Notes under the pieces: model-generated
Databases searched by the model: none
Seen by the model: the letters and a program-made list of their open reading frames with translations, nothing else
What the model was told of the DNA's origin: nothing
Virus record (IMG/VR): IMGVR_UViG_3300025000_000001
DNA: 64,000 nucleotides
Origin: an uncultured virus (IMG/VR IMGVR_UViG_3300025000_000001)
Lineage: Duplodnaviria; Heunggongvirae; Uroviricota; Caudoviricetes
Strand: one strand, 5' to 3'
Translations under genes and position numbers: made by a program
Shown: in pieces, positions 7,974-38,191 of the stretch
How positions within the stretch are numbered: position 1 is the stretch's first letter
Layout: every line of letters begins with the position of its first letter

Positions 7974-8245
7974 TAAATTTCCTTTTCGCATTCCAGATCA
8001 TTTTTACATCCTGGACAAGTCACTTTCCAAATCCTAATCGTTTCCTCGGTAATTTCGAAATTCTCATCGCGTTTATTGCGCGTCCAAGTAATTGGTAAAA
8101 CTTTATCGCCGTCTTCTAAGATCACCCTAGTCCCACAAACATCGCAGGTTCCTTCAGCCCCTTCAAAATCACAACAATATTGTATCTTTATTTTCTCTCT
8201 CCTTTCTAGTTGATAGAAAGAGTATATCATAAAAGTGATATTTTG

Positions 8246-8716
8246 TCAACCCCCAAAACGTTCCTTTACAGCAATATTACAAAGATCATCCACCCTATCG
8301 TTGCCAGCATTATTAGAGTGGCCTTTAACTTGAATAAATTCAATGTTCTCAAACCGTTTGATTTCACGTAATAACTCCATCCACAAGTTTTTATTTTCTA
8401 CTTTCTTTTTCTGAGCATTGATCCAGTTGTTTTTAATCCAATTTTTAGACCATTCGTTTATTCCTTTTACTAGATATTGGGAGTCTGAATAAACAGTAAA
8501 GCTGAAACCTTTTGGGTTGTTGATTCTTTGAAGTGCTTTTAAACAAGAAAGTAGTTCCATGACGTTATTAGTTGTGTTTTCTGCTATTCCAGAATCTTCT
8601 ACGATGTATCCGAAATATTCTATATGATAAGCCCAAGCTCCAACGTTTTCTTCGTTTTGGTTGCCTTTACAGCAACCATCACAGTAAATTAAAACTGGTT
8701 TTTGTTTTGATTTCAT
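8246..8716 (-). CDS. rnhA: Ribonuclease HI
   Basis: Motifs IYCDG, TTNNVMEL, YSDSQY, VENKNLW, VKGHS and GNDRVDDL. Confidence 0.95.
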   Translation of the reverse strand: MKSKQKPVLIYCDGCCKGNQNEENVGAWAYHIEYFGYIVEDSGIAENTTNNVMELLSCLKALQRINNPKGFSFTVYSDSQYLVKGINEWSKNWIKNNWINAQKKKVENKNLWMELLREIKRFENIEFIQVKGHSNNAGNDRVDDLCNIAVKERFGG

Positions 8717-11292
8717 TCTTCCTCTTTCAACGTTTGGGGATTGACAATCTCATATCCAGTTAACCAGATATCAAACTTGTCAGGAATATCTTCCCAACCA
8801 GATTCGGTTTTACGAACAGAGTTTTTCTTTTCAAAATATTTACACAAAACAATATCTCCTGGGTTGATAGGATTGTTTTCAAAGAGGTTCTTTCTAATTT
8901 TCAACGTTGCTGTAGTTCCTTTAGCCAAACAGTAAATTTCAATCTTTGGAGAATATTTGATTTCAATTTTATTGACATAAACATACTTCGGATTGAGTTT
9001 GAAAGTAGAAGCGACTCTTCCTAAGATAACCACATTGGCTCCGATCTGATGTCCAATGGGGAGGGATTCGTTTGGGAGTTCGCTGTATAACTTACGCAGT
9101 TCTTCCATACGCTTATCCTTTGATTTCTGAGTTAACTTGGCAGTATATTTATTCTTGCCTTTGCGAAATTCCTCAAAGATTGTCAGTAAACGTTTATTTT
9201 TTCCATACTTTGAAAAATAATTCACCAGAATAAGGTCTTCAAACTTAGATGAAACTAGACCATTATCTTCGGCGTAAATTAACATTTCCAAAAAGTCAGT
9301 ACCCTCAAACTCTCTTTGCAGGCGAATCAGATTGCCGACAACCTGATTGCTTAGGTTTTTTATACCATCCAACTTGTTTAGAAGTTCTTCTCTGTCTGTA
9401 GCGTCCTGTTCTTCTGCTTCTGATTTTGGCATTTCGAGAAATTCATCGTCTACAAACGGAATGAATTCGTAATCGTCATCTTTTATCTTTTCAATGTATT
9501 TTAATACGTCAGATAGATAATATTCGTAGTTTATGTCGTAGTTTTCAAAAGGAACTCGATCATCATAGTCATTCAAAATTCTAACTTTATTACCAACCAT
9601 AAGACCAATTTCATTACCTCGAACCTTATGCCGCTTGATGAGCGTTCCTCCACCTACAGACACATAAAAACGATTATTCTTTTGTAAGTTAATTACCGAT
9701 CCATCTTCTTTATGGTATTCTAGTTGAAAGTCAGAACCAGTTTTCTGAGAAATACAAAAGTCGAAAATATCATGGGATGATCTCAAAGTTTCTTCTACGG
9801 GTTTTTCGTTGATAAAATATTCGTACATACACTTTGGAACAATCGGATGGATATAACCTTTATTGAGTTCTACTTCTCGCAAATATCGACCCTTCTCTTT
9901 TGTTTTCCCATCTGGTTTTTTGGTAACATAATTGTTAACGTCAGATCGAACATATAAATCATAATCAGTATATTCGAGAGAAAATCCGGTTGATTGTTCC
10001 CATTCTTTACAAACTTCAAAATAGCTACTTTCCAGATTGCGGGGAATCTTAGAAACAATACCGTCCGTATTAGCTGAGATAACTCGAATACCCGCCAATA
10101 CCAGCGATTCTATCAACATCAAAAGATACAATTGACCCGAAACAGTTACACCTAAAAGTGCCTGAGCATCTTCTAGCCAAAATGTGCTGCTGTTTAGCTT
10201 ACCAAAAATTGAGTTAATAGTAATTTTTAATCCTTCAGCTTTTACTTTATTTCCAGATTTTTTGGCATCAATACGTTCTTGTGTAAGTTTAGTCAGAATC
10301 TTTGTAAAATCTTCTCCGAGATGTGCTGGTCGAATGTTGTTCTTAATCATCATGCTAGGATAGTATGAACTCGCGTCGCAATCTCTAATTATGTATTCTG
10401 AATCGGATACAAACTTTCTAGGATCATCATCGCTGTGCAATCCACCAGAACCCATTTTGTATGAAGTTCCACCAAATTCAAACACTTTGGTATATCCGAA
10501 ATTCTTTTCCTGCCGAACCAAAGTATTTTCTACCTCTCGCTTAACTCTCTTCAGGCGATTTGTTTTGAATTCGATTCCGCTTCCAAGACAATATCCAACC
10601 AGTAAACGAGAGTGGGTTGTTCTAAGACCCTTGAGCTTAGATAATTCTATACCCGATTCTTCAACGTATAGCTTTTCCAGAATAAGATTTCCCATTTTAC
10701 TATCGCTTGCGGAAGAAAGGTCTACACCAAACAATTCTCCAACATCTTTTCTCAGTTTTATCTTATCTTGAATTCTATCAAACAATTTTCTAGTTATCTG
10801 AACATCGTTTAAGTTGTATGACAAAATTGTTTTTACATCTGATTCTTTTACTGTGGCGTCGTAATTCAAAGGTAAGTCTTGAATTTTATACCAATTCAGA
10901 TTAATACCAACCTGTTTCAAACCAGTAAGGCCATCAAAAGCCATGATCTTCATCAGATCAACATCTTTCCAAGATCGTTTGGCCGTTCTAATCTTTCTAA
11001 TTCTTCCGTCAAATCTGGAAGAATCTGAGATGAGAGAAGATGATAGATCGAATATTTCTTCTGGAATGTTTACTTCGGTATTGAACATGGCTGCTAAAAC
11101 AGCACCGTCATATTCTAGGTTATTGTATCCAATTAGAATTAAATCTTCTTGTGATAGAAACTGTTTCATTGCTGGCGTTTCATCAGTTCCATCAAACAAA
11201 ACAAAAGATCGAACTTCTTTGGTATCAACACTTTCAAATGTTGCACAAAAGAAGTTGGGGAATACTTCAATGTCATAAACGTACTTAGGCAT
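8713..11292 (-). CDS. Family B DNA polymerase with 3'-5' exonuclease and a C-terminal DnaE-like HhH/OB extension
   Basis: ExoI YDIEV, ExoII GYNN..YD, ExoIII YNLNDV; polymerase motifs DASSYYP, K...NSIFGK and ANTDG. Confidence 0.9.
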   Translation of the reverse strand: MPKYVYDIEVFPNFFCATFESVDTKEVRSFVLFDGTDETPAMKQFLSQEDLILIGYNNLEYDGAVLAAMFNTEVNIPEEIFDLSSSLISDSSRFDGRIRKIRTAKRSWKDVDLMKIMAFDGLTGLKQVGINLNWYKIQDLPLNYDATVKESDVKTILSYNLNDVQITRKLFDRIQDKIKLRKDVGELFGVDLSSASDSKMGNLILEKLYVEESGIELSKLKGLRTTHSRLLVGYCLGSGIEFKTNRLKRVKREVENTLVRQEKNFGYTKVFEFGGTSYKMGSGGLHSDDDPRKFVSDSEYIIRDCDASSYYPSMMIKNNIRPAHLGEDFTKILTKLTQERIDAKKSGNKVKAEGLKITINSIFGKLNSSTFWLEDAQALLGVTVSGQLYLLMLIESLVLAGIRVISANTDGIVSKIPRNLESSYFEVCKEWEQSTGFSLEYTDYDLYVRSDVNNYVTKKPDGKTKEKGRYLREVELNKGYIHPIVPKCMYEYFINEKPVEETLRSSHDIFDFCISQKTGSDFQLEYHKEDGSVINLQKNNRFYVSVGGGTLIKRHKVRGNEIGLMVGNKVRILNDYDDRVPFENYDINYEYYLSDVLKYIEKIKDDDYEFIPFVDDEFLEMPKSEAEEQDATDREELLNKLDGIKNLSNQVVGNLIRLQREFEGTDFLEMLIYAEDNGLVSSKFEDLILVNYFSKYGKNKRLLTIFEEFRKGKNKYTAKLTQKSKDKRMEELRKLYSELPNESLPIGHQIGANVVILGRVASTFKLNPKYVYVNKIEIKYSPKIEIYCLAKGTTATLKIRKNLFENNPINPGDIVLCKYFEKKNSVRKTESGWEDIPDKFDIWLTGYEIVNPQTLKEEE

Positions 11293-11485
11293 CAATATCA
11301 ACTCCGTTTACAAACACAGCATACGGCTCATTATCCCATCCCTCGTTTAGATTTTCTTCATAATACTCGACGGTAACGGTATAATACCCACTGTTTAAAT
11401 TATAATTTACATATATCCGACGATCTTTCAATGATTTTGATGTTTTAATAGCTTCGTTCATTGCTTGTTCGTATGTAGAGTACAT
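11285..11485 (-). CDS. Small hypothetical protein, tandem paralog A
   Basis: Shares MY.T...A...A, YV.YN, YY, GWD..P.A.F..G with 11499-11690. Confidence 0.7.
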   Translation of the reverse strand: MYSTYEQAMNEAIKTSKSLKDRRIYVNYNLNSGYYTVTVEYYEENLNEGWDNEPYAVFVNGVDIDA

Positions 11486-11498
11486 TTTAGACTCCTAG

Positions 11499-11690
11499 TT
11501 AAACTTCTTTTCCCGAATTAAAGATTGCAACTGGATTCAAATCCCATCCCCCAGTTTCTTCATCGGGATAGTATCCTTCACTTACAAAAAACCAATCGCC
11601 GCTTCGATTATATGAAACGTAAACATATTCTCCGGTAAATTTAGATTCGCTCTCGGCAAACTTCAGCGCATCGTCCAACGTGTTATACAT
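11499..11690 (-). CDS. Small hypothetical protein, tandem paralog B
   Basis: GGAGG RBS before ATG at 11690; similarity to the adjacent gene. Confidence 0.7.
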   Translation of the reverse strand: MYNTLDDALKFAESESKFTGEYVYVSYNRSGDWFFVSEGYYPDEETGGWDLNPVAIFNSGKEV

Positions 11691-11780
11691 ATTTCCTCCA
11701 AGTGAAAATAAAATCCTAGTCAAATGACTTGTATATCAATCAACTAGGATTCTATCATAAAATCTTGGTTTTGTCAAGGG

Positions 11781-12566
11781 TCAACCTGAGAAATATTTAC
11801 AGGTTCCATCACCAAAACTACATAGGTTTTCGCAATAAAATTTATTGCCGTTACTCGTATTCCCAACAAATTCTTCTTCTTGATTGATTTCTTCAATTAC
11901 TCCCAAGAACCATTCAACAGCCTCTTGTGCTTTCACTGGATCAAATATTTCAATGTGAGTTTTACCGTTTACAATAAACCAGACATGAATTTCATCAATC
12001 GCAATTCCCTGAGTTTGCCAAACGAAATAACAATAGAGGTAGAATTGCCGCAAATAATTCAACATTTTGGTGGAGTCTAATTTTCCGTTGGCTTTATATC
12101 CATTTGCGGTTTTAAAATCTATCAGAATATTCTTTCCGGTTGATTTTTCTCTAAGAACTAGATCGGGCTTTACTGTCAACTTAATTCCGTTATGCTCAGT
12201 TTTTATATCTGCTTCGATCAGCAATATTTCCCATAGAGTTTTATCAAAGGTAAAATTCTCAAAGAAATTCAATCCATTGTTATAATAGTTCTCAGCAGCA
12301 TTTTTGATAAATCTCGGAAACGGTAAATATACATTTTCTGTATATTTACTGATATAGAAATCTTTTAACTCTGAGTGTTCTAGTTCACCTGAGAAGTATT
12401 TTTCTAGGATAAGATGACAATATGATCCAAATTGGCCCCAACAATTTTGTCTACGTTCTTCTGATTCAATGTAAGTTAAGTAAAAATTCTGCTTACAACC
12501 TTCAAAGTTTGTGACAGAAGAAAAGGAATAACGCATATTGTCGAGAATGAAATCATAACTAGACAT
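11781..12566 (-). CDS. Cas4/RecB-like PD-(D/E)XK exonuclease
   Basis: SFSS....EGC, GSYCH.ILE, KPDLV, LIDFKT, QFYLY and a C-terminal C..LC.....C cluster (probable Fe-S staple). Confidence 0.85.
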   Translation of the reverse strand: MSSYDFILDNMRYSFSSVTNFEGCKQNFYLTYIESEERRQNCWGQFGSYCHLILEKYFSGELEHSELKDFYISKYTENVYLPFPRFIKNAAENYYNNGLNFFENFTFDKTLWEILLIEADIKTEHNGIKLTVKPDLVLREKSTGKNILIDFKTANGYKANGKLDSTKMLNYLRQFYLYCYFVWQTQGIAIDEIHVWFIVNGKTHIEIFDPVKAQEAVEWFLGVIEEINQEEEFVGNTSNGNKFYCENLCSFGDGTCKYFSG

Positions 12567-12568
12567 TT

Positions 12569-14491
12569 TTATTCATCCTCTGCCCATTCCGGTTCTTCTA
12601 TATGAACGTTTGGATCATCTGTTCTCAATGGCGAATCATCCGTGTTCCAAGCATATCTCTTCCAAAGTTCTTGGGGATCAGTATAAAACCTAAGAGACGG
12701 AACATCAAAATATACATTAACGCTTCCCAAAGTTCCGGTGTATCGATTCTTGATGATTGAGATTCTTTGGTCATGCTCGATTGGTTCTCCTCCTTTTTTA
12801 CCGGGCCTACCCCTTTTTTCTTCATCTGAATATCTATGTACCGCAATCGCGTACTGAGAAAGGTTTCCGATGTCACTAGAGCCAGCAATGTCATACAAAT
12901 TAAGTCTGTTGTCCGATCCAATTCCGGGTTTTTTTGGGTGGCTGACTAATACCACTAAAACGTTGAATTTGGCGGCAAAACCCTTCAATTTAATAATCAA
13001 TTCTTTTTGTTTTTGCCAAGTGTTAGTATCATTTGTTCCGTCTATCCCGATGGTTGTAAGATTATCAAAAATGACAACTTTCACTCCAAATCTGCGAACA
13101 ACCGTTTCCGCTCGATTCAGAATACTAACGAGGGAATTATCGTCTTCGTTGTCATATGCCCAGATTCTTCCTTTTGCCCAATCTTTAATCTTTGCTTTTA
13201 CTACAGGTTTTACCGATCTGATATGATTGTTTTTCATGGAAATATTCTCTCTACCAGCAGCCTGGCAATAAATCCAAGAGCGAAGGATTGGTTTAGGCAT
13301 TTCTCCTGAGAAAATAAAGACATCTTGGCCTTGATCTAGTGGCTGCAAAACAAAAAGTTGATTTAATAAAGACGATTTTCCCGCTCCTGGCCGACCAGTT
13401 ATTAGAACTACGCTTCCAAAAACAAATTTATAAAGCATGTCATCCAATCCGCTGATTCCAGTGAACAATCCCGGTGAACTTTCGATATCAAAATCCTCTA
13501 CGTCATTCAAATCAACAACGTTCTGTACGTCTACTTGCTGTGCGTTTGCGATAAACTCAAGAACTTTTTCTTTGCCAAAGTTATATAAAACTTCGTTGGC
13601 ATCTTTCACTCGAATCAGTCTTTCCCCACTATCAATTTGAAGGGGAAGATCAACATATTTCGTTCTCCAAGCCCCAAGCCGAGAAGTTACTTCTCTTCGC
13701 ATGTCCAATCCAGGTTTATCGTTATCTGACCAAACAATGATTTCCGAGAACTGTTCCAACCAATCAAAATTTTCCTCAATCCATTTGTAATTTCCTGCCC
13801 CAAACGGAACGGAGACTGCGTTCAGGTAGCCAGATTCGATAATTGAAATCAGATCACCTTCGCCTTCACAAATACAGAGAGGCTTCTCTGGATTAATGCG
13901 ATTCATATTGTATAAAATATTTTTAGTAGAGGCGTCTTTTTGCGCCCAAAACTTATCCTCTCCTTTGTTTACCTTTCTGGATGGTCGATATTTAACCATC
14001 GTTAAAACATCCCCGGTGTCATAATAATTTAAAACGGTGTTTCCGCGAGAGTCTTGTTGAACGTCTAAGTAATCGAGAGTTTCTTTAGAAATTCCACGAA
14101 TTTTCCAATATTCCTCAACCTTTGATCTATCTTCAGAAAAGTCATATTTCGGATATTTATAATCCTTGTCTGTTTTCAATCCCTTTTCAGAGAAAGAAAA
14201 CTTAATTCCTTCTTCACTCAACAGTCTTTCTGCGGCAGAGATAAATGACAATTTATAAAATCCAATATAATGATCTAAAATGCCATATCTCTTTCCACAA
14301 GAAAAACATTTGAAAGCAAAATCTTTATTGCTCCAAATAAAACTAGGCGTATTTTCTCGATGAAATGGGCAACAACCCTTCATGGAAAGTTCGTCCCATC
14401 CTTCAATCTCTAAATCTTTGGCAATCAAGGTTGCCGCTTTTTCTCCATATTTTTCTTTAGCTTCAATAAGTAATTCTTTTGGGATCAGCAT
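12569..14491 (-). CDS. DNA primase-helicase (Zn finger, TOPRIM and DnaB-like SF4 helicase; T7 gp4/Twinkle-like)
   Basis: CCPFH...CFSC, CEGEGD, SDNDKPG, KDANE, Walker A GRPGAGKS, FDNL, VSHPKK, DIAGS and KNR. Confidence 0.93.
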   Translation of the reverse strand: MLIPKELLIEAKEKYGEKAATLIAKDLEIEGWDELSMKGCCPFHRENTPSFIWSNKDFAFKCFSCGKRYGILDHYIGFYKLSFISAAERLLSEEGIKFSFSEKGLKTDKDYKYPKYDFSEDRSKVEEYWKIRGISKETLDYLDVQQDSRGNTVLNYYDTGDVLTMVKYRPSRKVNKGEDKFWAQKDASTKNILYNMNRINPEKPLCICEGEGDLISIIESGYLNAVSVPFGAGNYKWIEENFDWLEQFSEIIVWSDNDKPGLDMRREVTSRLGAWRTKYVDLPLQIDSGERLIRVKDANEVLYNFGKEKVLEFIANAQQVDVQNVVDLNDVEDFDIESSPGLFTGISGLDDMLYKFVFGSVVLITGRPGAGKSSLLNQLFVLQPLDQGQDVFIFSGEMPKPILRSWIYCQAAGRENISMKNNHIRSVKPVVKAKIKDWAKGRIWAYDNEDDNSLVSILNRAETVVRRFGVKVVIFDNLTTIGIDGTNDTNTWQKQKELIIKLKGFAAKFNVLVVLVSHPKKPGIGSDNRLNLYDIAGSSDIGNLSQYAIAVHRYSDEEKRGRPGKKGGEPIEHDQRISIIKNRYTGTLGSVNVYFDVPSLRFYTDPQELWKRYAWNTDDSPLRTDDPNVHIEEPEWAEDE

Positions 14492-14524
14492 ATTTTCACC
14501 TTTATTACCTCTCATTCTAATATT

Positions 14525-15028: not shown

Positions 15029-16048
15029 TTATTCCTTTTCCTTTTTATTCGAAACCTTATTTGAAACCAAAACTTCCAAAGCAACAATTAGATTGTTTAG
15101 AGTTTCAACGGACTTGATCTTATTGGGATTACCCGATTCTCCAACATGGGATTTTACAGTCTTCATCAATTCATCATTCTTTGAACCGCCAAGCTCCTTG
15201 ATGAGACTAATCGCTTTTTCTTGCAAATCCTTTAGACTTTTTTCTTCTTCTTCTCGCCGTTCTTCATCACTTTTCTTTGTGGCAACGACCTGTTTTTCAG
15301 TATCTACAGCTTCATCCAACCACTTCATCAAGTCTTTGCCAACTTGAGGTGTAATCTTCACATATTTTTGATCGAAAATAGAGGTGCGATCCTTGCTGCC
15401 AAAAGCGGTATGTTCACTATCAATGTCCAAAAAAGTAGTAAACTCGAATTCCATCCCATCTCGTTGAACTGGGTTCATACCGAGTTTCTTTACAATGGTC
15501 TTACCCTGGTCGTTCTTTTCTTGAACATATTCTGTCTTAGAACGCATGGTTGCAATAATGTGCATTTTTGATTGCAACATAACATCCACAAAACGATTGT
15601 GCATTGGGGTAACTTCACGCCAAGCGGTATAGCTGTTCCCACTCTTCTTAGTGGCAGTACCTTGCTGTTCCAGTAAACCGCCCTGACCAGCCCAAAGATG
15701 CGTAGTGCTATCAATAATACAAACTTCAATGAAGTTTTCCTGGCATAGTTCAATTGCTGAAACATATTTTTCTGCGGTAAAGGGTTGGGTCAAAGTAACA
15801 ACATTGTATTCGCCAATCCGAAGATCATCTACAACCTTGTTTACATAGAGTTCACCGCTGCCGTTTTCGGTATCAATAATCGCCACTTTTTCCCAAAGTT
15901 CTTCCGAAGAAAGTTTGGGGTACTTCTGTTTTAGAAGACCGTAAGCAATCAACAGAGAGCCGAGAGTTTTACCCCCACCACTAGGCGCAGACATACCTAG
16001 ACGCAAATACGCCCGACTACGTTGAGCCTTTTTAAGTTCTAATGCCAT
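15029..16048 (-). CDS. Sak4-like / AAA_24 single-strand annealing ATPase
   Basis: Walker A APSGGGKT, IDTENGS, IIDSTTHLW, HIIATMRSK and QRDGMEFEF; adjacent to ssb. Confidence 0.88.
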   Translation of the reverse strand: MALELKKAQRSRAYLRLGMSAPSGGGKTLGSLLIAYGLLKQKYPKLSSEELWEKVAIIDTENGSGELYVNKVVDDLRIGEYNVVTLTQPFTAEKYVSAIELCQENFIEVCIIDSTTHLWAGQGGLLEQQGTATKKSGNSYTAWREVTPMHNRFVDVMLQSKMHIIATMRSKTEYVQEKNDQGKTIVKKLGMNPVQRDGMEFEFTTFLDIDSEHTAFGSKDRTSIFDQKYVKITPQVGKDLMKWLDEAVDTEKQVVATKKSDEERREEEEKSLKDLQEKAISLIKELGGSKNDELMKTVKSHVGESGNPNKIKSVETLNNLIVALEVLVSNKVSNKKEKE

Positions 16049-16428: not shown

Positions 16429-16502
16429 CGCACTCGACAGGGGACGATCCTGCATACCTTTGGCTTAGAAGGCCACTGCTCCTCCAATTGAGCTACGAGT
16501 GC
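16429..16502 (-). tRNA. tRNA-Arg (UCU)
   Basis: Acceptor stem GCACTCG/CGAGTGC; D arm TAGCTCAATTGG; anticodon loop CT-TCT-AA; atypical T loop ATCGTCC; no encoded CCA. Confidence 0.85.
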
Positions 16503-16508
16503 ATAAGG

Positions 16509-16581
16509 CTCCCAGATTAGGACTTGAACCTAAAAACCAATCAGTTAACAGCCGATTGCTCTACCATTGAGCTACCTGGGA
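16509..16581 (-). tRNA. tRNA-Asn (GUU)
   Basis: Acceptor stem TCCCAGG/TCTGGGA; loop CT-GTT-AA; GGTTCAAGTCC. Confidence 0.92.
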
Positions 16582-16588
16582 ATATTTT

Positions 16589-17020
16589 TACGGAATAGAG
16601 GAATGAAATAAACTATTTGCTAATAACCTTCACAGAAGGCTTTACAGGCTCATTGAAAGTCAATTCAACAGTAAGTAGACCATTCTCCAAGAACCATTCT
16701 ACTTCTCTCAAAGACTTCACATAAAATGAAGTAGAGAACTGAAATAATTTGTCCAAACTCTCATTTTTAGTAGAAGCAGAAACCTTCAATAGTTGAATGT
16801 TTGGATTGTCGGTTGCATCAACATCAATATTGACATCTTCCTTATTGACACCAAGAGCATTCATAACCACCAGCAATTTGCCATCTTTTTCGATTGTCTG
16901 ATACCCCCGACTTTCGTGAAAGGGGCGACGGAACCAATAACTATCAGAAGTGAAAAAATCGTAAAGTGTAGTCATATCATTTTCCTCCAAAATTATAAAT
17001 TATTGTTCCTCTATTCCGTA
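16589..17020. repeat. 15-bp perfect inverted repeat flanking hsp20 (16589-16603 and 17006-17020)
   Basis: TACGGAATAGAGGAA and its reverse complement TTCCTCTATTCCGTA. Confidence 0.9.
16613..16975 (-). CDS. Small heat-shock protein (Hsp20 / alpha-crystallin family)
   Basis: ALGVNKEDVNIDV, LKVSA and LENGLLTVEL motifs; GGAGG RBS. Confidence 0.8.
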   Translation of the reverse strand: MTTLYDFFTSDSYWFRRPFHESRGYQTIEKDGKLLVVMNALGVNKEDVNIDVDATDNPNIQLLKVSASTKNESLDKLFQFSTSFYVKSLREVEWFLENGLLTVELTFNEPVKPSVKVISK

Positions 17021-17021
17021 G

Positions 17022-17118
17022 TGGGTGTAAAAGGATTCGAACCTTTACTATTTAGTGCCTTGCGAGGGTCTTCTCCTTATAAGAGAGAGGCTTTCACCTG
17101 AATTTAAGCTATACACCC
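17022..17118 (-). tRNA. tRNA-Ile (UAU) with an unusually long (about 25 nt) variable region
   Basis: Acceptor stem GGGTGTA/TACACCC with discriminator A; anticodon stem TCTCT/GGAGA; loop CT-TAT-AA; GGTTCGAATCC. Confidence 0.82.
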
Positions 17119-17179
17119 GATCTAACTTTCCTAATTCTATCACACTTTCAAAATCCTGTCAAGGGTCAGTTTTGCCCAG

Positions 17180-17261
17180 TCGAGAAGAAGGGGGTCGAAC
17201 CCTTATGCCTTTCGACGCATGATTCTAAGTCATGCCTGTCTGCCAATTCCAGCACTTCCCG
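17180..17261 (-). tRNA. tRNA-Leu (UAG)
   Basis: Acceptor stem CGGGAAG/CTTCTCG; GGAATTGGCAGAC; stem CATGA/TCATG with loop CT-TAG-AA; variable arm; GGTTCGACCCC. Confidence 0.92.
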
Positions 17262-21866: not shown

Positions 21867-22391
21867 CTAAAAATTAATCTTTATTGGTGTAAGAGCATCT
21901 AAACTAGGGATAAGGGCGAATTTCTGTAAGAGTTTTGCTGTCATGCGGGCATCATATAATGCGTTGTGTGCATTTTCTACGGGAATACCTGCCTTTTCGC
22001 ACGCAAAAGCCAAATTGTTCTTTTCTCCAGGCCAATATTTTCTAGCCAACAAAAGTGTGTCGATTGATTCTGTAAATCTAAATCCTCTTTCGTTTAGAAA
22101 GCCACAGTCAAACTTAGAATTATGATTGACCATAACATTTCCAACGAACATTCTTGCAAGATCGTCCAGAACATCGTCTATCAATCGGCCTTTAGAAATC
22201 ATCTCTCTCGTAAATCCGTTTACCTCAAGAGCTTTGTCATCTACAACCTTGTAAGGATAATCTTTTACTACAGAATAATAATGACCAACTGGAGTCAAGT
22301 CTTCAGATAAAAATACAACCGCAACAGAAACGATTGCGCCAGTCTGAGGATACAAACTGCCTGTTTCGAGATCGCACACAGAGTAGATCAC
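21867..22391 (-). CDS. DEDDh 3'-5' exonuclease (DnaQ-like)
   Basis: DLETG, HNSKFD, IDTL and HNALYDA. Confidence 0.92.
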   Translation of the reverse strand: MIYSVCDLETGSLYPQTGAIVSVAVVFLSEDLTPVGHYYSVVKDYPYKVVDDKALEVNGFTREMISKGRLIDDVLDDLARMFVGNVMVNHNSKFDCGFLNERGFRFTESIDTLLLARKYWPGEKNNLAFACEKAGIPVENAHNALYDARMTAKLLQKFALIPSLDALTPIKINF

Positions 22392-33352: not shown

Positions 33353-34450
33353 TTAGTGAAACTCAGTTGCATTTTTACGAGTTAGATAATCTGTAGAAAC
33401 AGATTTCAGAATTTTGCGTCCAATCTTGGGATTGAAGTTTTCCTCGATGGGCTTAATTACGCAGCCTTCACGAATTTGAGTGGGGCAGATTGGGTCTTTG
33501 CCGTCCGTATGACGTTTGACAACATCTTCGCTGTATGGGCCGATATAAAGTTCTGGAACGGTTTTCAACCCATAGTCTTCACAAAACTCTTTGACATCAA
33601 ACCAATTTAGATATTTTCCGTCTTGCTTGATGTCAAAAACCGCGAACTCAAGATGGTCTAACCCATATGTTAAATCCTGAACGTTTGATCCATTGTGTTT
33701 GCCGTAGATTTCTCCGTAAACAATGGTGTTATCTGGCAACCATTTTTCGAAGTTATACTGCTTACCGATTTCAAACCAGATATTCTTTCCGTAGTAAGTT
33801 TTACTTTTTTCAGAACGCAATTGCACGTTGTGAGAGCCGTAAACATATTCCTGAGTTTGGCGAAGAATGTTTATTTTGAACCAGGATTTTGCTTGCTCCA
33901 AAAAAGTCTTATATCCGGCTTTTGGAATAGGAAGCCTAGAATATCTTGCGTTTCCTCCGTGGATTTTAAGAGTCACCACAACCATTTCGCCATCTTCAAA
34001 CACATCATTGAAGTTTTTTATATTTTCAATATCTGTATAGCGATCAAAATAGGGATTCAACTTGCGTTTTGATGTCGGGTTAGCTTTCATGCTTTGGGAT
34101 TTTGGTTCTTCTGGCTCCCATTTGGTAATGCCCATTTTTTCTGCAACGTTTTCCCCAATGCTGAAATTTGGAGCAACAGGAAGAACCAACCCTTCGCTCA
34201 GATAACCACGAAGTTTCACTGTTCCGGTTCGACCATTATTATTCTTCAGATAAGTAATCTCATATTGATCAATCAGATTCTTTGGCAGAATAGAATCAGG
34301 AGGAATAAATACAACTAAATCTCCAGGCTTATATTGGCCCTTAACGATAATCGTCTGCCAACCTTTTACTTTAGCCAATTCCAAACGATCAGCATTTGGG
34401 TGGACATTTACTTCGTCAATCTTGCAAACTTCAACAATCAAACTACTCAC
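33353..34450 (-). CDS. ATP-dependent RNA ligase, DRB0094 (Rnl5) family
   Basis: N-terminal OB domain HPNADRLE; motif I KIHG; YGEIYG, FDI, REGCVIK and LKSVS..YL. Confidence 0.92.
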   Translation of the reverse strand: MSSLIVEVCKIDEVNVHPNADRLELAKVKGWQTIIVKGQYKPGDLVVFIPPDSILPKNLIDQYEITYLKNNNGRTGTVKLRGYLSEGLVLPVAPNFSIGENVAEKMGITKWEPEEPKSQSMKANPTSKRKLNPYFDRYTDIENIKNFNDVFEDGEMVVVTLKIHGGNARYSRLPIPKAGYKTFLEQAKSWFKINILRQTQEYVYGSHNVQLRSEKSKTYYGKNIWFEIGKQYNFEKWLPDNTIVYGEIYGKHNGSNVQDLTYGLDHLEFAVFDIKQDGKYLNWFDVKEFCEDYGLKTVPELYIGPYSEDVVKRHTDGKDPICPTQIREGCVIKPIEENFNPKIGRKILKSVSTDYLTRKNATEFH

Positions 34451-36964: not shown

Positions 36965-38191
36965 TTATTCTACACTTTTAAAGTTATAAATCGGCTTGAT
37001 CACATCAATAATTTCAACTGTGTCTTGAATATTATCAATGATTTCTTGCATGGGCTTATAAGCCATAGGTGCTTCATCCAGGGTAGATTCGTTTACGGTT
37101 GTAGAAAAAACACCCTCCATCGAACTTGAGAATTCCGACATGGAAAGGCTTCTCTTAGCTTCCATTCTACCCATCAGTCTACCGGCCCCATGAGGGGCAG
37201 AAAAATTCCAATCCGAATTTCCTTTTCCTTTAGCAATAATGCTTCCGTCGCGCATATTGATTGGAATAATCAATTCCTCGCCTTCGTATGCCGAAACAGC
37301 ACCTTTTCGAATAATACCATCGTGAAAACTAATGTAGTTGTGAATTGTTTCAAATTCTTCATGGTCTTCTAAATTCGACCCAAGCAATTCTTCCAAAATC
37401 ACGTTTGCCATAGTTTTACGATTCAAAGAGGCATATTCTTGGCAAACTTCCATATCATGAAGATATTGATCTCGATTAAGTCCCTCTAGGAAACACAATT
37501 CTTTCGGATATTTTGGTTGTAATTCAGAATAATATTCCTCTATTTCTTTTAATTTAGATGAAATAAGATGTTGTTTTCCTTCCTTTTTTAAAGATTCAAT
37601 TGCTTTATCTCGCAAATCCTTCAAACTAAAAGAAGATTCTTTGCAAAAGTCTACGGCAACATCCTGATAAAAATCTGCAACCTGCTTTCCTAAATTCCTG
37701 CTACCAGAATGAATTACCAAATATACATCTCCATAATCATCCATGTCTAATTCGATAAAATGATTTCCCCCTCCTAAAGTTCCAATGGCCCTGTTGAATT
37801 TGTTTATGTTTTTCAAATAGTCAAAACAAAACAAAGACTCGATCTGTCCAAATCGAACAAGAGAACTTTCGTAAATGTTGTGTCCGCTAGGAATTGATTT
37901 GTGAATAAACGAATCTAATTCATTTAGATCAACGCCGATGTTTCCTAATTTTACAACCTGCATTCCGCAACCAATATCCACGCCTACAAGATTTGGAATT
38001 ACCTTCTTTCCCAAGTCTGCCGTAAATCCAATAACACATCCAGCACCAGCGTGAGTGTCCGGCATGATTCTAACTTTTGCTCCAGAAACAAAATCCTGAT
38101 CCAACAGCTTAACAATCTGAGAACTTGCAGTTTCTTCAATGTTGTCCGTAAAAACTTTGGCTGAGTTGTATTTTCCGTGTAAGATTTTCAT
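36965..38191 (-). CDS. rtcB: RtcB RNA ligase
   Basis: MPDTHAG, VGVDIGCG, GTLGGGNHF, HSGSR, HNY, RKGA, SAPHGAGR and DEAPMAYK. Confidence 0.96.
   Translation of the reverse strand: MKILHGKYNSAKVFTDNIEETASSQIVKLLDQDFVSGAKVRIMPDTHAGAGCVIGFTADLGKKVIPNLVGVDIGCGMQVVKLGNIGVDLNELDSFIHKSIPSGHNIYESSLVRFGQIESLFCFDYLKNINKFNRAIGTLGGGNHFIELDMDDYGDVYLVIHSGSRNLGKQVADFYQDVAVDFCKESSFSLKDLRDKAIESLKKEGKQHLISSKLKEIEEYYSELQPKYPKELCFLEGLNRDQYLHDMEVCQEYASLNRKTMANVILEELLGSNLEDHEEFETIHNYISFHDGIIRKGAVSAYEGEELIIPINMRDGSIIAKGKGNSDWNFSAPHGAGRLMGRMEAKRSLSMSEFSSSMEGVFSTTVNESTLDEAPMAYKPMQEIIDNIQDTVEIIDVIKPIYNFKSVE

Follow-up and report, generated by a model that had tools for sequence, protein, structure and literature searches.

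A phage family B DNA polymerase with a DnaE-type (HhH)2-OB tail, encoded in a genomic slot shared with DnaE

Replicative polymerases of families B and C have unrelated folds and are usually treated as separate replication systems. Here, we describe a polymerase that joins parts of both. It is encoded on the minus strand of a 64,000-nucleotide stretch (hereafter the window) of the uncultured Caudoviricetes record IMGVR_UViG_3300025000_000001, and it consists of a family B polymerase (PolB) core followed by a tail resembling the C-terminal portion of DnaE, as an earlier note made from the sequence alone had proposed. In the domain overview of PMC3919608, DnaE is composed of PHP, Pol3, a tandem helix-hairpin-helix module ((HhH)2), a beta-clamp-binding motif, an oligonucleotide-binding (OB) domain and then a C-terminal domain, the last of which is found in most DnaE1 but not in DnaE2; the tandem HhH is described there as DNA-binding and the OB domain as oligonucleotide-binding, with the clamp motif lying between the two.

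The tail is shared with DnaE-type polymerases of large phages of Bacillota and of uncultured phages, such as those of Geobacillus virus E3 (gp96) and of MT835469 (an open reading frame (ORF) of 1102 amino acids (aa)). These display a terminal (HhH)2-helical-OB tail with no further C-terminal domain, 27-35% identical to that of the chimera, and their genes are located in the same slot after primase and helicase genes. Their catalytic part comprises PHP, DNA_pol3_alpha and fingers, whereas the window protein has a family B core instead. This exonuclease-polymerase core is in turn shared with the tail-less PolBs of PHROG 1252, namely those of crAss-like phages (e.g., crAss002) and of Seurat/CAjan-like coliphages, deposited as DNA polymerase or DNA polymerase B, with 30-33% identity over residues ~5-607. 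Unlike the chimera, these proteins end at about 607-632 aa. The closest tail-less PolBs in IMG/VR are 33-40% identical to the window core.

The polymerase is read from a single uninterrupted ORF of 862 codons (8713..11301, minus strand), of which the last ~225 codons and the stop occupy 8713-9390; the ORF as listed begins three codons before the ATG, at TTG 11301. An identical database protein of 859 aa (P0003, 100%, with the ATG start at 11292) has been recorded from 18 contigs, the longest having 134,910 bases, and a 26.8-kb IMG/VR record encodes the polymerase at 100% identity as well. Megablast of positions 8000-12000 against deposited phages revealed no match. All strings quoted in the earlier note, LDGIKNLSNQVVGNLI, FEGTDFLEML, LVSSKFEDLILVNYFSKYGKNKRLL and GDIV...W...Y, are present in the translation, and neither the translation nor the identical protein on the 18 contigs shows a stop or frameshift between core and tail. 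The core had been said to end near residue 605; indeed, the match to PHROG 1252 stops at 609 and is followed by an acid-rich linker, which differs in length by about 25 residues in an alignment of the relatives' C-terminal regions. We are almost certain that the protein is a real chimera of a PolB and a DnaE tail.

For the core, PHROG 1252 ("DNA polymerase") provided the strongest assignment, matching residues 5-609 with E 2e-142 over profile positions 53-654 of 663. A profile of 46 relatives recovered 27 solved sequences at E ≤ 0.01, all labelled as family B or plainly as "DNA polymerase", the best being an archaeal family B polymerase (8s84_A, E 2.4e-8), with E. coli Pol II at 4.9e-4. The NCBIfam Pol II models gave E 3.4e-6, under their cut-off, and residues 25-177 displayed a weak match to the RNase_H_2 superfamily. 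Pfam PF00136 (DNA_pol_B) found no match in the window protein at E ≤ 10 and matched one of the 46 relatives (E 0.002), the family being too divergent for this model. The family B assignment therefore rests on the profile matches to solved sequences and on the invariant motif residues. In the exonuclease part, D10 and E12, N60 and D65, as well as Y162, N163 and D166 are invariant in 46 sequences; we take these to be exonuclease motifs I-III, and the invariant residues given in Table 1 to be polymerase motifs A-C. The motif B region aligns with residues 481-601 of solved family B polymerases. PHP, DNA_pol3_alpha and fingers, all present in the syntenic phage DnaEs, were not detected in the window protein by Pfam. 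Judged by its domain content, the window protein is not a DnaE, and its DnaE-derived part would be the tail only.

The tail (residues ~636-862), by sequence, matches only DnaE C-termini or relatives of the same chimera. Compared alone with 50,697 phage records by tblastn, it found 35 records (best E 8e-19), which bears out the resemblance to phage DnaE C-termini that had been noticed before: 29 carry an annotation as PolIII alpha, DnaE or DNA polymerase, five carry none and one is hypothetical, all belonging to large phages of Bacillus, Clostridium/Clostridioides, Geobacillus and relatives. Wherever an annotation exists among the 35, the tail match lies at the end of a DnaE-type gene. Three records were inspected, and in each the match forms the extreme C-terminus of a DnaE gene (1014, 1036 or 1102 aa) that carries PHP, DNA_pol3_alpha, fingers and HHH_6 according to Pfam, the match beginning within HHH_6. 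With the C-terminus of the 1102-aa DnaE of MT835469, the tail shares 30% identity (E 3e-22).

A HMMER search with the tail in 1.84 billion representative proteins gave 446 matches at E ≤ 0.001, including 175 at E ≤ 1e-10, so that chance can hardly account for the likeness of the tail to DnaE. In the best 150 of the 446, the tail match was always C-terminal. Of these 150, the 48 that are at least 561 aa long and are not among the known PolB chimeras were scanned with Pfam. DNA_pol3_alpha and/or DNA_pol3_finger were present in 45, HHH_6 only in one, and no Pfam family in two; according to PHROGs, both of the latter are again PolB chimeras, and the tail matches of intermediate length are fragments of PHROG 405 or PHROG 1252 proteins. 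A third kind of core attached to the tail was not found among the best 150 of the 446 matches. The tail furthermore matches PHROG 11119, a 299-position "DNA polymerase" profile (positions 52-293, E 5.5e-13), and the C-terminal part of PHROG 405, a 1190-position "DNA polymerase" profile (positions 869-1045, E 2e-4), and consensus lines drawn from 77 PolB tails and from 42 DnaE tails correspond from end to end. Designer pentatricopeptide repeat proteins, which appeared when the tail was compared with the sequences of solved structures (E 2.7e-4), matched in many weak repeated stretches and were judged to be a helical-repeat artefact. Many of the tail-bearing phage DnaE genes (P0129, P0141, P0153, P0216, P0224 and others) are interrupted by one or two inteins carrying LAGLIDADG or HNH domains, and in several of them the insertion shortly precedes the tail.

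The fold predicted for the tail by AlphaFold from an alignment of 46 sequences shows five helices and two longer ones, followed by a barrel of five strands in which a helix follows strand 3, at a mean predicted local distance difference test score (pLDDT) of 95.7. The helices of the (HhH)2 block lie at tail residues 2-8, 17-29, 35-44, 52-57 and 67-79 (pLDDT 85-98), and the region of the two connecting helices contains a basic stretch, EKTK.KR, which is conserved in both the 77 PolB and the 42 DnaE tails. When the model was compared structurally with 48,161 representative chains, the three DnaE chains ranked at the top, over the (HhH)2 and OB region that the earlier note had pointed to: 2hpi_A of Thermus aquaticus DnaE (Z 9.5, root-mean-square deviation (rmsd) 5.0, 172 aligned, residues 877-1122), 7pu7_A, the M. 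tuberculosis polymerase (Z 9.1, rmsd 4.5, 184 aligned), and 5fku_A of E. coli DnaE (Z 8.9, rmsd 6.2, 176 aligned, residues 820-1071). Each of them covers tail residues 1 to 216-219, while the other chains cover the OB part only with Z of at most 8.2, many OB-fold matches having Z 6.7-8.2. The Z values are moderate, and the weight of this comparison of a predicted model lies in the DnaE chains ranking first and alone covering both modules.

Foldseek revealed 7pu7_A (E 7e-5) as the sole PDB match at E ≤ 0.001. In BFVD, six matches reached E ≤ 0.001 and all four named ones are DnaE-type phage proteins, the best being a 299-aa "DNA polymerase III alpha subunit" of Lactococcus phage LW81 (E 1.3e-14). 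The tail corresponds to the part from (HhH)2 through OB of DnaE, and the protein stops about eight residues past the last OB strand. The C-terminal domain following OB is absent from the window protein; the syntenic phage DnaEs likewise end there.

The genomic setting gave further insights into the relation between the two kinds of polymerase. In the window, the genes follow the order primase-helicase, PD-(D/E)XK nuclease, two small ORFs and polymerase. A DnaE does occupy this locus in a related phage, since MT835469 displays the identical order of primase-helicase, nuclease and 1102-aa DnaE, with 42% identity to the window in the primase-helicase (E 2e-173), 31% in the nuclease (E 5e-33) and the 30% already mentioned in the tail. 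Fourteen IMG/VR loci have a primase-helicase of 41-43% identity; DnaE is directly downstream in 12 of them, and in the remaining two the sequence ends just past the primase-helicase. Three chimera loci (L022, L041 and L044) show the arrangement of the window with 48-57% identity. A second context was found at locus L037, in a record rated 100% complete (137.7 kb), where the order DnaB, DnaG, RecJ and polymerase is the same as that of helicase, primase, single-stranded DNA exonuclease and DnaE in Geobacillus virus E3 (RecJ 42%, E 4e-140; primase 35%, E 1e-65; tails 35%, E 4e-24). Non-homologous polymerases in one slot between homologous flanks, as an in-place swap would leave them, are thus seen in two contexts.

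None of the 51 tail-less PolB loci in IMG/VR shares the window's neighbours at E ≤ 1e-4, and no DnaE catalytic domain was found in any of five related records, four of which are at least 90% complete. Sharing its neighbours with DnaE phages and none with tail-less PolBs, the chimera has the genomic background of DnaE phages, and this background is the main support for a replacement in place. Many chimera and PolB+OB loci encode, with 52-67% identity, the AAA_24 ATPase found in the window at 15029-16048 (minus strand; PHROG 1366); it is more conserved than the polymerase and is always found a few kb upstream.

The chimera is by no means restricted to the window. Homologues number 208 at E ≤ 0.001, and 70 of the 120 listed align over 93% or more of the query, with 39-56% identity and a length of 841-947 aa. 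The relatives' tails are 32-47% identical compared with 44-53% for their cores, and both tail halves contain invariant or near-invariant positions (46 sequences). Deposited phages lack the chimera, as none of the 959 records with a match covers 80% of the query. In metagenome-assembled genomes, it was seen on short contigs only, which are assigned to five unrelated phyla and are probably mis-binned phage DNA. Scanning IMG/VR, we obtained 76 polymerase loci of different forms: 51 encode the core only (~600-630 aa), nine the core and OB (751-782 aa) and 15 the core, HhH and OB (859-894 aa), the last count taking in the record of the window itself and an ORF cut at its N-terminus; at one further locus, the polymerase ORF is cut by the contig end. 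A core tree of 69 rows, leaving out L030 (identical to the window) and the fragments L044, L050, L071, L085, L088, L095 and L096, placed the tail-bearing PolBs in one clade nested among tail-less ones (SH-aLRT, the Shimodaira-Hasegawa-like approximate likelihood ratio test, 90), within which the full-tail forms are again one clade (94).

Taking these findings together, we consider it quite probable that the protein is a replicative cross-family chimera, in which a flexible acidic linker connects a complete family B core, with proofreading exonuclease and polymerase, to the tail, and that it originated by replacement of the core in place, with the tail kept for a job that does not depend on the core. 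The starting point would be a phage replicating with DnaE. There, a PolB core from a tail-less phage PolB lineage would have taken the place of the PHP-Pol3 catalytic part without any change of genomic slot, and the DnaE gene would have kept its 3' end; the chimera would then have spread and would now reside in at least two kinds of DnaE-type replication module. That the fusion arose by replacement in the DnaE slot itself, a possibility already raised in the earlier note, is likely in our view and is supported by synteny, and from this we infer the route of its formation and the order of events.

The window also encodes a stand-alone DnaQ-like 3'-5' exonuclease (21867-22391, minus strand; Pfam RNase_T, E 2e-21), though the polymerase has an exonuclease domain of its own. 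We rejected this gene as a leftover of a DnaE/epsilon pair, with no homologue being found in four DnaE-phage records or in record G002. A homologue of 46% identity directly follows the chimera gene at locus L041.

Several observations weigh against the proposed origin and role of the chimera. First, Pfam recognises neither HHH_6 nor an OB family in the window's own tail, where the only match was a weak one to Phage_tudor (E 0.14). By contrast, Pfam found HHH_6 in 28 of 46 relatives (E ≤ 0.01, best 5.9e-11); precomputed annotations include HHH_6 in 21 of the 120 homologues listed and PF01336 in one relative (P0055). Second, the profile of the chimera family has no match to solved DnaE sequences at E ≤ 0.01, so that it is structure, together with the phage DnaEs as intermediates, that ties the tail to cellular DnaE. 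Third, a clamp-binding consensus, which we take to be a Q..LF-like pattern, is not visible by eye in the consensus lines of the 77 PolB or the 42 DnaE tails. Fourth, neither a primase-helicase nor a nuclease of the window type lies within 10 kb in eight of the 14 full-tail rows used for the core tree.

The remaining points concern the trees. The core tree shows the OB-only forms as three lineages that branch off before the full-tail clade, and parsimony on this tree alone would favour OB being acquired first and HhH later; the HhH half would moreover be dispensable, since three lineages lack most of it. Monophyly of the OB-only forms is weakly rejected (approximately unbiased test, p-AU 0.029), this group having been named after the tree was seen. 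The OB-only proteins nevertheless retain remnants of the second hairpin (NKLGKNQL compared with FSKYGKNKRLL) and of the next helix, and their three lineages show three different deletion patterns. On the basis of these remnants and differing deletions, we read the OB-only forms as independent reductions of the full tail, an interpretation drawn from the alignments. The tail tree comprised 85 rows, namely 40 PolB tails (every second of the 77) and 45 DnaE tails, with 64 unclassified fragments left out. Its best version interleaves PolB and DnaE tails with six changes, at least two of which are forced by the starred branches. A single clade of PolB tails, corresponding to one fusion, is not rejected (p-AU 0.20), although the best tree does not show it. 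The PolB tails of the window and of L037 are 46% identical to each other and only 30-35% identical to the DnaE tails of their syntenic partners, and this closeness suggests a few fusion events, followed by spread of the finished chimera gene.

Replacement of the core need not have happened in one gene. In a two-step alternative, which we regard as possible but rather unlikely, DnaE would have been split into a catalytic gene and a ~300-aa tail gene, and PolB would have replaced the former and fused with the latter downstream at a later time. Stand-alone tail proteins of this size do exist (PHROG 11119 and the 299-aa protein of Lactococcus phage LW81), tail matches of 200-300 aa were numerous in the HMMER search, though a majority of them may be fragments from contig ends, inteins or HNH genes are frequent insertions in phage DnaE genes, and whole-gene swaps in place are documented in the main text of PMC11348598. 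Yet all 24 tail-bearing PolB loci of IMG/VR have core and tail in one ORF, an intermediate with PolB and a separate tail gene was not seen among the IMG/VR PolB loci, and the syntenic DnaE relatives inspected are unsplit genes.

We find it unlikely that the fusion was formed elsewhere, with a PolB phage gaining the 3' end of a DnaE gene from a co-infecting phage or a host and the resulting chimera later displacing whole DnaE genes. A PolB-phage background, as this would imply, was not found, the 51 tail-less loci sharing no neighbours with the chimeras, even if the occurrence of the chimera in two unrelated module types, the greater similarity of the PolB tails to each other (46%) than to the syntenic DnaE tails (30-35%) and a monophyly of PolB tails that is not rejected (p-AU 0.20) are in its favour. 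Spread by later swaps is at the same time compatible with replacement of the core in place, an origin in the DnaE slot still being allowed.

It is very improbable that the tail is a relic without function that is gradually disappearing: three lineages have indeed deleted most of the HhH, each in a different way, and the tail evolves somewhat faster than the core, but it is in frame, is predicted to fold with a pLDDT of 95.7, has been retained in 70 of the 120 homologues listed down to 39% identity, has invariant or near-invariant positions in both halves and keeps its OB part in every reduced form. An artefact of assembly or gene calling that fused two genes can practically be dismissed, as the same 859-aa protein is found on 18 contigs and the architecture recurs in dozens of divergent clusters and 15 IMG/VR loci.

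If the core was replaced in place, the tail would have been kept for a job independent of the catalytic core. We see an even chance that this job is DNA holding and processivity: by analogy with DnaE, the HhH motifs would hold the duplex product and the OB fold the single-stranded template, and a tail attached where the PolB thumb ends would make synthesis more processive, as in DnaE; engineered fusions of phi29 polymerase with HhH motifs are reported to act in this manner (PMC8313265). Docking of a replisome partner by the tail is also possible but unsupported. Rather speculatively, the DnaE tail could be viewed as a portable replisome "socket", an autonomous DNA-holding and docking module that accepts engines of family C or B. 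Its sequence may then act as a homology arm guiding exchanges; repeated core exchange would explain the interleaving of PolB and DnaE tails, and the OB part would be the indispensable contact.

A DnaN-type clamp is encoded in two of five related records (G004 and G006), and none was detected in the complete 137.7-kb chimera record or, by tblastn, in the window. In one of the two (G006, a 165-kb phage record with terminal repeats), the 379-aa clamp (L028, 12695-13831; Pfam DNA_pol3_beta, E 5e-25) is directly downstream of a PolB+OB gene, a bacterial-type beta clamp thus standing beside a family B polymerase. Five other chimera records, of which two are 90% complete or more, gave no match to the primase-helicase of the window type, which therefore cannot be the general reason for retention of the tail. 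The C-terminus of the primase-helicase in the window (12569-12650, minus strand) is acidic with an aromatic residue (…EEPEWAEDE), and relatives located upstream of DnaE end in …DEEEIYG…; presumably, this resembles the polymerase-binding acidic tail of T7 gp4.

The coordinates of the polymerase, its parts and its neighbours are collected in Table 1. The window as a whole represents a phage replication and nucleotide-metabolism region of ~36% G+C with nearly all genes on the minus strand. The start codon of the RNase H gene overlaps the stop codon of the polymerase (8713-8716), suggesting coupled translation. The large subunit of ribonucleotide reductase is encoded in two ORFs (2-733 and 940-1758, both on the minus strand), which are ~200 bases apart and match consecutive parts of PHROG 84 (positions 507-766 and 201-489). 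Rfam revealed no intron family between them, and they could represent a split gene, an unrecognised intron or a frameshift. Four tRNA genes, the only Rfam matches in the window, are clustered at 16429-17261 (minus strand), a short way upstream of the replication module. Genes for an RNA ligase and an RtcB-type tRNA-splicing ligase (33353-34450 and 36965-38191, both on the minus strand) are close neighbours and may form a tRNA repair pair.

Table 1. Coordinates in the window of the chimeric polymerase gene, the parts of its product and adjacent genes.
Feature	Coordinates	Strand	Basis
RNase H gene	8246..8716	-	Pfam RNase_H, E 1e-32
Chimeric DNA polymerase gene	8713..11292	-	ATG 11292-11290, stop 8715-8713
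Family B polymerase core, residues 5-609 (3'-5' exonuclease part and polymerase part)	9475..11289	-	PHROG 1252
Polymerase motif A region, residues 307-315 (D..D..SSYYP)	10357..10383	-	Invariant D307, D309, S312, Y314, P315 (46 sequences)
Polymerase motif B region, residues 359-368 (KITINSIFGK)	10198..10227	-	Invariant K359, N363, S364, G367, K368 (46 sequences)
Polymerase motif C region, residues 411-414 (NTDG)	10060..10071	-	Invariant N411, T412, D413, G414 (46 sequences)
Acid-rich linker, residues 610-635	9397..9474	-	Translation; variable length in relatives
Predicted five-helix (HhH)2 module of DnaE type, residues 636-715	9157..9396	-	Model; DnaE chain alignments; collinear with DnaE tail consensus
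Two predicted connecting helices, residues 716-767	9001..9156	-	Model helices, tail residues 90-106 and 114-125
Predicted OB-fold domain of DnaE type, residues 768-862	8716..9000	-	Model; structural matches
PD-(D/E)XK nuclease	11781..12566	-	Pfam PDDEXK_1, E 1e-12
Fused primase-helicase, upstream neighbour	12569..14515	-	Pfam DnaB_C, Zn_ribbon_DnaG, Toprim

Exchange of polymerases between phages is not new in itself. In Caudoviricetes, non-homologous polymerases have been reported to be swapped in place at a fixed slot while the neighbours are kept (Virol J 2024, PMC11348598). The swaps presented in the main text of that study involve whole genes, PolA being exchanged with PolB and PolC being replaced by PolA, whereas here only the catalytic part would have been exchanged, with a pair of family C domains retained and a change from the PolC family to PolB; fusion, C-terminal, OB-fold and DnaE are all absent as words from that main text. 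A PolB with a DnaE tail was likewise not found described in the full-text literature searched, supplements not being covered. With whole-gene swapping in place already known, the chimera can be regarded as a domain-level, cross-family polymerase swap, in which the exchange known in phages for whole genes reaches down to domains, and one replication slot can accordingly take either of two unrelated polymerase engines.

A similar logic has been proposed for the C-terminal domain of eukaryotic PolBs, which is traced to DP2 of archaeal PolD, PolB having replaced the polymerisation domain only, so that the old C-terminal domain was retained under a new PolB core (Nucleic Acids Res 2020, PMC7544198). 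DnaE, OB-fold, HhH and helix-hairpin-helix are not mentioned in this family B polymerase survey. The domain retained in the PolD scenario is a Zn-binding helical one that binds the B-subunit, and the event is ancient, cellular and inferred only from deep phylogeny; in the case of the chimera, by contrast, both parental forms survive in related phages. The chimera hence offers a living parallel to this proposed origin by core replacement.

Engineered chimeras of phi29 polymerase with HhH motifs are reported to have better salt tolerance and replication performance (Microb Biotechnol 2021, PMC8313265). Like the window protein, they combine a family B polymerase with HhH motifs; unlike it, they are man-made and have no OB domain. 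The chimera is a natural counterpart of these fusions and could prove of use as a source of processive enzymes. Pairing a family B engine with family C accessory domains in a natural protein that is conserved across a wide set of uncultured phages, it also makes it possible to test which replisome functions belong to the DnaE tail and whether they are independent of the core.

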